Below, in pieces: positions 7,219 through 11,445 of a stretch of DNA of 64,000 bases. Made by a program: the position numbers and the translations under genes. Numbering within the stretch: position 1 is the first letter of the stretch; the number at the start of each line of letters is the position of its first letter. This DNA comes from Candidatus Aenigmatarchaeota archaeon. GTDB taxonomy: Archaea > Aenigmatarchaeota > Aenigmatarchaeia > Aenigmatarchaeales > JACQIB01. Under the pieces are notes generated by a model, which saw only the letters and a list, made by a program, of their open reading frames with translations, did not search any database and was not told the origin of the DNA. Location of the stretch: assembly GCA_016198755.1 (NCBI GenBank), contig JACQIB010000001.1:129178-193177 (forward strand), read 5' to 3'.

Positions 7219-7463
7219 TGGTGGGCCCGGAGGGAGTTTCGAACCTCAAGGGAGAGGTTGAAAGGAGATACGTAGTTTCTCCTTCTTCGAACCCTCGACT
7301 CTCGGGTCTGAAGAGTGCTGCTCTCGCAGTATTTCTTCCTGTCATCGCCTGAGCTATGAAGACCCAGGCTGCACATGCTTTTATCTGGTGCGGGCATATT
7401 CTGCAACACTTCTGCGTGCCGCAGATAAAAGCCCGATACTCTACCAGACTGAGTTACGGGCCC
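7219..7463 (-). tRNA. tRNA-Lys(UUU) with a 118-nt anticodon intron (37/38; 7308-7425) and a 50-nt T-loop intron (59/60; 7236-7285); CCA encoded
   Basis: GGGCCCG/CGGGCCC acceptor, ACUC/GAGU D stem, UCGGG-CUUUUA|A-CCCGA anticodon arm, GAGGG-UUCGAA|U-CCCUC T arm. The T-loop intron has a BHB (UUCG/CGAA, bulges AA|G and AC|U). Confidence 0.88.
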
Positions 7464-7540
7464 AGATAACAGAAATTGGTAAAGAAGCTTATAAAGGCTT
7501 TATATTCAGCCTCTGCAAAGAATATTTGAGGTGTTAGTTA

Positions 7541-7747
7541 ATGCCAACAAAAACAATGTCTAAAACTTCAGGTGGAACCTGTAATGGATGCGGCTGCGGC
7601 TGCCCTCACCACAGATGGGCAATGAGCATAGCCCTTATAGTAGCAGGTGCTGTTTACGTGTATACAGCTAACTGGGGCTATACATTAGCTGCCTTAGGTA
7701 TTTTGGGCCTGCTAAGCGGGTTCTGCAAGTGTTGTGGCCACAAGTAA
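7541..7747 (+). CDS. Small Cys/His-rich membrane protein
   Basis: CNGCGCGCPHH, two short hydrophobic segments, CKCCGHK; GAGGTG Shine-Dalgarno. Confidence 0.75.
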   Translation: MPTKTMSKTSGGTCNGCGCGCPHHRWAMSIALIVAGAVYVYTANWGYTLAALGILGLLSGFCKCCGHK

Positions 7748-7800
7748 ATTTTTATATTTTCTTTATTTTTCTTCTCCCTAGCTTTGGCTACAGAATAAAA

Positions 7801-11272: not shown

Positions 11273-11445
11273 TGGTCCCGCGGGGGAGATTTTCACCCAC
11301 CCATAGGGAGAGGGTGGAGGGAGATACGCAGTTTCTCCTCCTTTGAACTCCCAGCCTCTCGATTTCTTTTTGAACGCAGACTAATCTGCTGTTACTAATA
11401 CGTAACCAGCTACAGTCGAGCGCTCCACCGTTGAGCTACCGCGGG
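11273..11445 (-). tRNA. tRNA-Tyr(GUA) with a 46-nt anticodon intron (37/38; 11364-11409) and a 52-nt T-loop intron (59/60; 11290-11341); CCA encoded
   Basis: CCCGCGG/CCGCGGG acceptor with archaeal C1-G72 and A73, CUCGA-CUGUAG|A-UCGAG, GGGAG-UUCAAA|U-CUCCC; T-loop BHB UUCA/UGAA. Confidence 0.92.

Follow-up and report, generated by a model that had tools for sequence, protein, structure and literature searches.

In a window of 64,000 nucleotides from a tiny groundwater archaeon of the Candidatus Aenigmatarchaeota (contig JACQIB010000001.1), which is the whole stretch of DNA analyzed here, the genes for tRNA-Lys(UUU) and tRNA-Tyr(GUA) are interrupted in their T loops, between positions 59 and 60, by related inserts that carry the same hairpin module of about 40 nt. 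The module recurs at this position in other tRNAs of the genome, stands outside tRNA genes in this and other genomes, and occupies, in a close relative, orthologous tRNA genes that here hold introns of other families. The explanation that we favor, and that we consider moderately probable, is that the inserts are introns with a relaxed bulge-helix-bulge (BHB) splice motif and that their core is a module mobile at the level of DNA, similar to the repetitive extragenic palindromes (REPs) of bacteria or to miniature inverted-repeat transposable elements (MITEs).

Inserts in the T loops of tRNA-Lys and tRNA-Tyr

The minus-strand T arm of tRNA-Lys reads GAGGG-TTCGAA, then a 50-nt insert (7285 down to 7236), then T-CCCTC-CGGGCCC-A-CCA; that of tRNA-Tyr reads GGGAG-TTCAAA, a 52-nt insert (11341 down to 11290), and T-CTCCC-CCGCGGG-A-CCA (Table 1). 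Both T loops are broken after the sixth nucleotide, and this reading agrees exactly with the inserts that the original prediction had placed at 59/60 of the two genes. The 19-nt core, GGAGAAACTRCGTATCTCC, has two matches in the window, at 7264-7282 and 11320-11338, both on the minus strand and without mismatch to the R pattern, against 0.01 expected; none of 100 shuffles reaches two. The two cores are identical at 18 of 19 positions, and the inserts also have in common the motif CCTCTCCCT and a pyrimidine tail. Folded alone, each insert forms two hairpins (−17.1 kcal/mol, z −3.3, with 2 of 200 shuffles as good for Lys; −18.8 kcal/mol, z −1.8, with 9 of 200 as good for Tyr), the second of which is built from stems of different sequence, AACCUC/GAGGUU in Lys versus CCACCC/GGGUGG in Tyr. 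Pattern matches and folds thus agree with the predicted common hairpin, shared motif, and re-paired second stems. When flanks are included, the minimum free energy (MFE) structures contain a helix of 4–5 bp between the T loop and the 3′ end of the insert (UUCGA/UUCGA in Lys, where the intron end TTCGAAAC pairs with the T-loop TTCGA, and UUCA/UGAA in Tyr) and, at the 3′ splice site, a bulge of 3 nt preceding U60.

Neither gene is detected by ARAGORN or Rfam as it stands. On the unspliced window, ARAGORN calls only one tRNA, and Rfam at its gathering threshold matches only the 5S rRNA and tRNA-Asp; at E ≤ 1, Rfam has no match on the module at six other copy loci of the genome. Deleting the insert in silico makes both visible to ARAGORN, as Lys(ttt) with an intron of 118 nt and as Tyr(gta) with one of 46 nt, and across the genome 34 of 38 candidates spliced in this way are recognized, with the cloverleaf restored. 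ARAGORN calls no second Lys or Tyr(gta) gene in the genome, intron mode included; its sole Tyr call, with anticodon ata (C1:67784-67871; genomes, contigs, and loci are given by our own G, C, and L numbers), is most likely a mis-call. As no other genes for tRNA-Lys(UUU) and tRNA-Tyr(GUA) were found, the inserts would have to be spliced.

Both genes have a further, canonical intron at 37/38; the junctions in tRNA-Tyr, by eye, are CTCGA-CTGTAG before the intron and A-TCGAG after it. In metagenome contigs of runs X5 and X6 (groundwater/soil), position 7309 is joined to 7430 with two other letters, so relatives without the 118-nt Lys intron exist; a contig of run X7 keeps it. Contigs of runs X5, X6, and X12 also join 7501 to 7796 with two other letters, and the 294 bp between tRNA-Lys and tRNA-Asp (7502-7795) are absent in these relatives.

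Table 1. Features of the window, families of 59/60 introns in the genome, and orthologous genes with exchanged introns
Feature	Position	Strand	Description	Basis
tRNA-Lys(UUU) gene	7219..7463	−	245 nt, two introns, CCA encoded	acceptor/T-arm census (C5:136396-136640)
Family-A intron of tRNA-Lys	7236..7285	−	50 nt, between T-loop positions 59 and 60	
Conserved module within Lys intron	7244..7290	−	47 nt	covariance model R1 match C5:136421-136467, 62.9 bits
Canonical 37/38 intron of tRNA-Lys	7308..7425	−	118 nt, ends approximate	ARAGORN placement
tRNA-Tyr(GUA) gene	11273..11445	−	173 nt, two introns, CCA encoded	census (C5:140450-140622)
Family-A intron of tRNA-Tyr	11290..11341	−	52 nt, between positions 59 and 60	
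Conserved module within Tyr intron	11300..11346	−	47 nt, core hairpin 11320-11338	R1 match C5:140477-140523, 62.2 bits
Canonical 37/38 intron of tRNA-Tyr	11366..11411	−	46 nt, ends approximate	ARAGORN placement
Intron families at 59/60			A 7, B 7, C 5, D 3 tRNA genes, plus one 12-nt piece	census
Swap, Gln-CUG (L190)	C1:2198		B in this genome versus A	
Swap, Arg-GCG (L191)	C5:12206		B with nested extra insert in this genome versus A	
Swap, L193	C2:239127		D in this genome versus A	
Swap, Trp (L206)	C5:99342		D in this genome versus A	
Swap, L234	C1:47759		C in this genome versus A	

A conserved module inside and outside tRNA genes

The conserved unit is built from an outer stem of 3 bp, which covaries, a further stem of 8 bp, a bulged C, and the tail ACCCUCUUCC. 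In greater detail, the 8-bp stem is GGAGAAAC/G-U-(U or A)-UCUCC with a 3-nt loop, the bulge is C or U, and the tail is A(A)CCUCU(U or C)CC; in the Lys module, these parts are the outer stem GAA/TTC, the core hairpin at 7264-7282, the bulge, and the tail AACCTCTCCC. Most copies in relatives are GUUUCUCC, with a perfect 8-bp stem, and the eight copies of this genome all have an A.A mismatch. We examined covariation in 59 distinct copies from many genomes, in which copies within a genome are related and counts overstate independent events. Outer pair 6-31 is AU in 25, CG in 15, GC in 9, and UA in 8, with 2 unpaired; pair 7-30 is GC in 35, AU in 15, and CG in 6, with 3 unpaired. Over the three outer pairs, 96.5% of cells pair, and the covariation score is 0.233, versus 0.005–0.057 in slid controls and with none of 500 shuffles reaching it. 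G-U pairs occur on the forward strand only (five GU at pair 8-29). The original prediction had spoken of conserved loops with covarying stems: the covariation holds for the outer stem, but conservation of the loop is not strict (TAC 43, TGC 9, GTA 4, GCA 2, TAT 1). A switch in which GGAGA pairs with the second UCUCC, also predicted, is possible in only 18 of the 59 copies, which are of one haplotype. The covariance model R1 also matches longer or altered stems of the same plan, that is, a purine 5′ arm, a short loop, a pyrimidine 3′ arm, a bulged C or U, the outer stem, and a tail A(A)CC(C)UC..UUCC.

The assembly has 890,842 bp in six contigs and is 89% complete (completeness and the labels of metagenome-assembled genomes (MAGs) are taken as given). 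It contains eight exact-core copies and none of a reversed control pattern; R1 finds the same eight and no diverged ones. Seven lie at 59/60 of tRNAs of differing identity: Lys, Tyr, Ser-CGA, and Arg-CCT by ARAGORN, and Val-GAC, Gly-CCC, and Leu-GAG by eye, as ARAGORN places other introns of these genes differently. These are alike introns at the same position of different isoacceptors, as in a transposed intron family. The eighth is a solo copy 3 nt past the stop codon of an Rpb3/RpoD-like open reading frame (ORF) and ~55 nt ahead of a tRNA-Leu gene. We considered whether it is an intron in the rpoD mRNA, as in cbf5, and rejected this: it follows the stop, and after it come a 70-aa frame without Pfam match and the tRNA-Leu gene.

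We took a census of tRNA genes, which is not exhaustive. It required a 7-bp acceptor, a T arm, and a CCA in the gene, and the T loop was permitted to hold an insert behind nucleotide 59. Its 39 rows, 2 of them junk, together with a tRNA-Leu(GAG) found separately, give 38 tRNA genes, of which 23 are filled at 59/60. The fillings fall into four families, A to D (Table 1); the additional 12-nt piece looks like a remnant of D. All inserts at this site start with G and end ..GAAAA (or ..GAAAC/..GAGAA) before T60, and of two near-identical tRNA-Val genes one has family A and the other family C. The end of the insert fits the T loop of its host, being CGAA in both TTCGAA family-A hosts and TGAA in the six TTCAAA hosts of this genome, as expected from the predicted co-variation of the BHB helix with the T loop. 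On the unspliced genome, ARAGORN calls nine tRNAs, or 16 in intron mode, with no Lys among them.

The genome encodes two adjacent ORFs with an EndA domain (PF01974), of 173 and 178 aa, as well as RtcB. According to the part of the literature that we draw on here (PMC5829648), non-canonical introns are cut only by two-subunit and epsilon-type EndA, and a "specific loop" confers broad specificity. The RtcB gene itself (C5:42797-45628) matches its profile in two pieces (1-50 and 48-426) that lie ~1.4 kb apart in one 1010-aa frame, which suggests an intein or other large insertion.

Families B, C, and D each have a GC-rich hairpin and then a tail of ..ACCCC type (e.g. C1:2198-2337, C1:47759-47903, C2:239127-239318), and the family-B core has two further copies outside the tRNA list (C3:17767 and C3:31446). 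By eye, tRNA-Leu GAG (C5:115580-115740, L005) has, besides its family-A intron, an apparent second GC-rich insert of ~20 nt between the 5′ T stem and the T loop. In tRNA-Arg GCG (C5:12206-12414), a nested extra insert of ~50 nt, absent from the other B copies, lies within the family-B intron.

Beyond this genome, the core with at most three mismatches occurs in 16 of 61 relatives' genomes, and a scan of one genome per prokaryote species gave 96 stretches. The archaeal matches carry the tail and the bacterial ones do not; the tail-bearing MAGs belong to the Aenigmatarchaeota and to records titled Methanocellales, Thermococci, Thermoplasmata, Methanosarcinales, and Norongarragalinales. The bacterial matches (13 loci in one Rikenellaceae MAG and singles elsewhere), lacking the tail and having other flanks, were treated as unrelated hairpins. 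In the Rikenellaceae MAG, at least 11 loci have the same 19-nt hairpin with flanks GGGGTC..GACCCC and ..TGTGC (L033, L034, L040, L055, L057, L063-L065, L072, L080, L108), and to judge from these flanks the repeat looks unrelated, its hairpin being alike by chance or convergence. With R1 at E ≤ 0.001 and strict filters, 18 of 151 sampled genomes of the class matched (five of them have 8, 14, 9, 5, and 4 copies), and at the same threshold none of four sampled genomes of the organism's own family did. A covariance scan of the kind proposed with the original prediction recovered further copies, both in this genome and in the class; in viruses, which were to be scanned as well, IMG/VR gave two core matches, both without the tail, and a link to viruses is unsupported. 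Family B occurs in 1 and family C in 3 of the 61 genomes, with patterns that are longer, and so stricter, than that for A.

The contexts of the module elsewhere are varied. In sense orientation, it is found at 59/60 in four more genomes (G005, G017, G009, G014) and also at 37/38 or in D loops (L035, L146, L068, L084, L150). One MAG has it reversed in three tRNA-Leu genes (L075, L078, L083), where it forms the 3′ end of introns in the D loop. Outside tRNA genes, some copies stand at, or a few nucleotides from, the TAA stop of the ORF before them, and many of these have a T run behind (L148, L151, L152, L154, and the rpoD copy); one such copy follows a SecY-like C terminus, assigned by eye. The reversed module is also found ahead of small ORFs whose N terminus is that of an archaeal type IV pilin, in frame with their MKG.. 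start and 0–4 nt from it (L140, L142, L155-L157, L159, in G043 and G109). Of two such ORFs tested, one matched Pilin_N (E 5e-6), in an alignment that starts immediately behind the Met of the MKG motif; here the module could be an element of the 5′ untranslated region or part of a long leader peptide (..EEGRGRNVVSPL-MKG). The solo copy downstream of rpoD is present in 1 of 24 relatives' loci and is kept in a sister population (L199). The gene order rpoD to tRNA-Leu(UAA) is kept between families (L177 on G014:C52, 1-200, versus C3:233829-234111 here); the tRNA-Leu(UAA) of G014 has a divergent module at 59/60, a GGAAGGGGGAGA stem with matching tail, and that of this genome has only the 12-nt insert at 59/60, with the module upstream as the solo copy. 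A genome-wide scan for complements of the tail, such as an rRNA target, found only scattered purine-rich coding matches and the modules themselves.

Exchanged alleles and a filled/empty site

A scan of metagenomes with a 33-nt core-plus-tail pattern, which covers family A only, gave 52 copies on 50 stretches, several of them syntenic with this genome. On metagenome contigs of a close relative, family A occupies five orthologous tRNAs whose counterparts here carry B, C, or D (Table 1). The exons, and mostly the flanks too, differ by few letters in these alignments, and the main difference is the intron; overall BLAST identity of contigs and genome is 73–97%, and at L191 there is no difference over the first 60 aligned nucleotides and hardly any in the 3′ flank. 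The exchanged block runs from just after TTCAAAG / TTCGAAG to 5–12 nt before the 3′ splice site, and the last 5–12 nt of the intron stay host-specific in all five cases, e.g. AGAGCG-GAAA in tRNA-Gln. Because the block ends short of the splice site in this way, the mover appears to be an inner module within a constant intron frame. To judge from the five exchanges, the family that was predicted to be mobile has been so on a short time scale, and the eight copies in the genome sustain the idea of a homologous family; what has to be amended is the unit, which is not the intron but the ~40-nt module, found also outside tRNAs and in both orientations.

A further contig (L202) carries an insert of ~150 bp made of two tandem units, each a family-A intron followed by a tRNA 3′ exon and CCA. 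The insert follows TTTAAA in the T-loop-like sequence GGATTTAAATCC, and TTTAAA is repeated at its far end. Here, the site is uninterrupted (C3:211930, within C3:211855-212043), which makes a filled/empty pair at the DNA level. One of the 3′ exons matches the tRNA-Leu gene adjoining rpoD.

The tRNA-Lys intron is old: another genus of the same family (L027) carries it too, despite RpoD proteins that are only 59% identical; there, the outer stem has a compensatory change (GAA/TTC versus AGA/TCT) and the second hairpin is different.

In order-mates, an intact tRNA is followed by an insert of 0.3–0.9 kb (L129 = G035:C1:11259-14278, 1460-2390; G039:C214:74212-74596; G029:C19:104480-105155) that ends in a reversed module and an exact 20-nt repeat of tRNA nucleotides 54-73. 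The G035 insert has a 248-aa ORF, methyltransferase-like by eye, and about ten more such junctions occur on metagenome contigs. Such arrangements look like att-type or long target duplications at the T loop. The 3′ fragments after a reversed module in G035, G039, and G029 might also have been halves of split, trans-spliced tRNAs joined via module copies; we rejected this because the same tRNA stands intact 0.3–0.9 kb upstream, on that strand, and because the 20 nt of the fragment repeat it exactly.

Proposed mechanism, rival readings, and significance

How would such an element live in tRNA genes? In our favored explanation, the two-subunit EndA would cut the inserts out at 59/60 and RtcB would rejoin the exons. 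The intron would have two parts. One is the conserved module, which is repeated at dispersed sites in Aenigmatarchaeota and in certain other archaeal MAGs; the other is a host-specific 3′ part that would pair with the tail, forming the second hairpin, and with the T loop through xGAA, building the structure of the splice site. The module would move as DNA and overwrite the inner part of resident 59/60 introns, as in a cassette exchange by gene conversion, and it could also land at T-loop-like sequences. Within tRNA loops, it would survive since the splicing enzymes remove it; elsewhere it may persist intergenically, directly after stop codons, and ahead of pilin-like genes. We infer spread at the level of DNA; no reverse transcriptase, Y1 transposase, or tyrosine recombinase was found. 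The simplest drive would be recombination or gene conversion that starts from the intron frame and the T-arm sequence common to these genes; alternatively, an enzyme might recognize the hairpin.

Several points weigh against this explanation. In the MFE folds, the 5′ splice site lies at a three-way junction without a clean 3-nt bulge, and the Tyr folds with context are no better than shuffles (z −0.57); by this modeling, the splice motif of both inserts is a relaxed BHB at best, not a canonical one, and cleavage at the 5′ site is assumed. None of the RNA sequencing runs searched for this stretch contains it, so that splicing is something we infer and a circular product would be hypothetical. 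The invariance of the inner 8-bp stem is partly ascertainment, as copies were searched with that pattern. The scan that gave the swaps, being restricted to family A, says nothing on their direction, frequency, or ancestral state. A Y1 transposase, tyrosine recombinase, integrase, or reverse transcriptase was not found in this 89% complete genome; PF01797 (RAYT-like Y1) has no matches in it or in G005, G109, and G052, and in G043 only fragments, at three contig ends. Finally, ectopic gene conversion among old introns, with no element moving, could by itself account for the swaps, and a function for the host would likewise fit both the sequence conservation over distant genomes and the copies located directly after stop codons.

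These last two points lead to the serious rivals, neither of which excludes the favored explanation. The module may be a host RNA element with its own function, such as a 3′-end, terminator, or stability hairpin, a protein-binding site, or a stable circular RNA, for which introns are one home and which spread by selection rather than by selfish mobility. Several observations speak for this: the sequence of core and tail persists across families and across genomes whose titles name different phyla, the outer stem covaries with G-U pairs on the forward strand only, several copies stand at or near TAA stops with a T run behind, and both the orthologous Lys intron (between genera) and the rpoD copy (in a sister population) have been retained. 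We nevertheless consider this unlikely, as the module is patchy, with 18 of 151 genomes of the class and none of four of its own family at E ≤ 0.001, and with the solo copy in only 1 of 24 rpoD loci; it occurs in both orientations relative to the host transcript and has no Rfam match, and a terminator in sense orientation within a tRNA intron would do harm. The other rival dispenses with a mobile element altogether and supposes old 59/60 introns among which ectopic gene conversion, acting on ~23 copies, has left a few families by concerted evolution, copies outside tRNAs being rare by-products of recombination with tRNA genes. The shared site and frame of the four families (first G, last ..GAAAA), the host-specific last 5–12 nt in the five swaps, the near-identical tRNA-Val pair with A and C, and the failure to find a transposase, integrase, or reverse transcriptase all speak for it, and the presence of tRNA 3′ exons and flank in the L202 insert is what recombination would be expected to produce. 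It leaves unexplained, however, the 37/38, D-loop, reversed, post-stop, and pre-pilin copies of other genomes, as well as the presence of the module in distant MAGs while B and C (1 and 3 of 61 genomes, with the longer patterns mentioned above) are nearly private, and we doubt that it is the right account.

Two further readings seem to us to have less in their favor. It is very improbable that the inserts are retained and that the genes are pseudogenes or assembly artifacts of a repeat. Repeated sequence can mislead assemblers, and the RNA runs gave no match to the stretch, but no other Tyr(GUA) or Lys(UUU) genes were found, the exons are intact and form a cloverleaf after removal, a contig of an independent run spans the whole Lys gene including the insert with 14 differences in 283 nt, and the 3′ part of each insert is fitted to the T loop of its host. 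A more physical idea, quite unlikely in our judgment, is that the module forms a triple helix. The pyrimidine tail (CCUCUU..) is the mirror image of the hairpin's own 3′ arm (..UUCUCC), and it could lie in the major groove along the purine arm GGAGAA with C+.G-C and U.A-U triples, as RNA or single-stranded DNA; a mirror repeat of this kind is typical of pyrimidine-motif triple helices and, in duplex form, is an H-DNA motif. The length of the U run in the tail goes with that in the arm, three going to two in 28 of 31 distinct parsed copies, four to three in 2 of 2, and five to four in 4 of 5. In divergent copies, arm and tail have changed in concert, and the mirror match exceeds the direct one (13 versus 8 nt in L177, p 0.001; 10 versus 6 in L253, p 0.014; 9 versus 6 in L155, p 0.017), and the A.A mismatch of the stem is linked to a U-to-C change in the same layer of the tail (41 U/U, 16 A/C, and 2 others among 59 copies). 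Against it, 16 of 31 tested copies have no mirror excess, including the Lys copy of the window (p 0.99) and a subfamily with A in the tail; C/T-rich sequence of low complexity matches easily; and the folds predict that the tail, in tRNA introns, is taken up by the second hairpin instead. If the idea were true, the excised circle could be unusually stable, and the DNA could be locally recombinogenic, driving copying of the cassette into T loops or introns without a transposase.

The favored explanation has several relatives among known systems. Bacterial REP/BIME (bacterial interspersed mosaic element) and Correia-type repeats are short imperfect palindromes present in many copies, intergenic, often placed after stop codons, in either orientation, and patchily distributed. 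The module is likewise a short dispersed hairpin repeat with post-stop copies, both orientations, and a patchy distribution; unlike these repeats, it is archaeal, has an added pyrimidine tail, and lies within tRNA genes as a putative spliceable intron, in a genome where no RAYT-like Y1 was found. It is accordingly not a REP with RAYT, as the search for a Y1 transposase gene in this genome was negative, nor a MITE in the strict sense: the palindromic stem is internal rather than terminal, a TTTAAA repeat flanks one filled site and none is seen at 59/60, and no transposase was found. Box C/D guide RNAs in archaeal tRNA-Trp introns are examples of tRNA introns that bear a function. Here, too, a structured, conserved RNA would be carried by a putative BHB intron, from which it might be freed in a stable and perhaps circular form, but it has no C or D boxes by eye and no Rfam match, and it has many hosts instead of one.

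Closest in kind are the transposed BHB introns of Thermoproteales (Fujishima et al. 2010), described in the review cited here in part (PMC4090602) as near-identical introns at the same position, canonical or non-canonical, of different tRNAs. As far as that account goes, the present families resemble them in having near-identical introns at one position across tRNA identities and in the BHB-dependent splicing that is assumed for them. They differ in that they occur in DPANN (Aenigmatarchaeota), that four families occupy one site, 59/60, that the core occurs in distant genomes, in either orientation, and at sites beyond tRNA genes, and that swapped and filled/empty alleles are seen. In Caldiarchaeum subterraneum, by the portion of the report consulted (PMC3293823), a tRNA-Thr gene is disrupted by a recombinase-bearing mobile element of 1.8 kb. 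Common to that case and ours, on this partial comparison, are population heterogeneity at a tRNA locus, tRNA fragments beside inserted DNA, and intron gain tied to the integration or recombination of mobile DNA. The unit here, in contrast, is ~40 nt, and no recombinase was found in the genome; the 0.3–0.9-kb inserts of the order-mates, set beside the 1.8-kb element, have the module at the far end and are flanked by a 20-nt repeat of the tRNA 3′ end. Within the openly accessible literature on archaeal, DPANN, and Aenigmarchaeota tRNA introns, intron transposition, and MITEs, we found no description of the module, subscription papers and supplements lying outside this scope. New here are the lineage, the four families at one T-loop site, the core outside tRNAs, and the natural swapped and filled/empty alleles.

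In the passages available to us, the same review calls the mechanism of intron transposition unknown, and a 2026 preprint on Asgard tRNA introns closes with "how they arrive remains open." The locus described here offers a handle on the origin of archaeal tRNA introns, with four families competing for one site in a single small genome, with natural allele pairs in which one family is replaced and the aligned exons and flanks are nearly unchanged, and with a core that also lives outside tRNA genes. It explains why standard tools see 9–16 tRNAs in this genome, which is of practical use for the annotation of DPANN genomes. The question of origin thereby becomes testable with population metagenomes, in vitro splicing, and simple biophysics.

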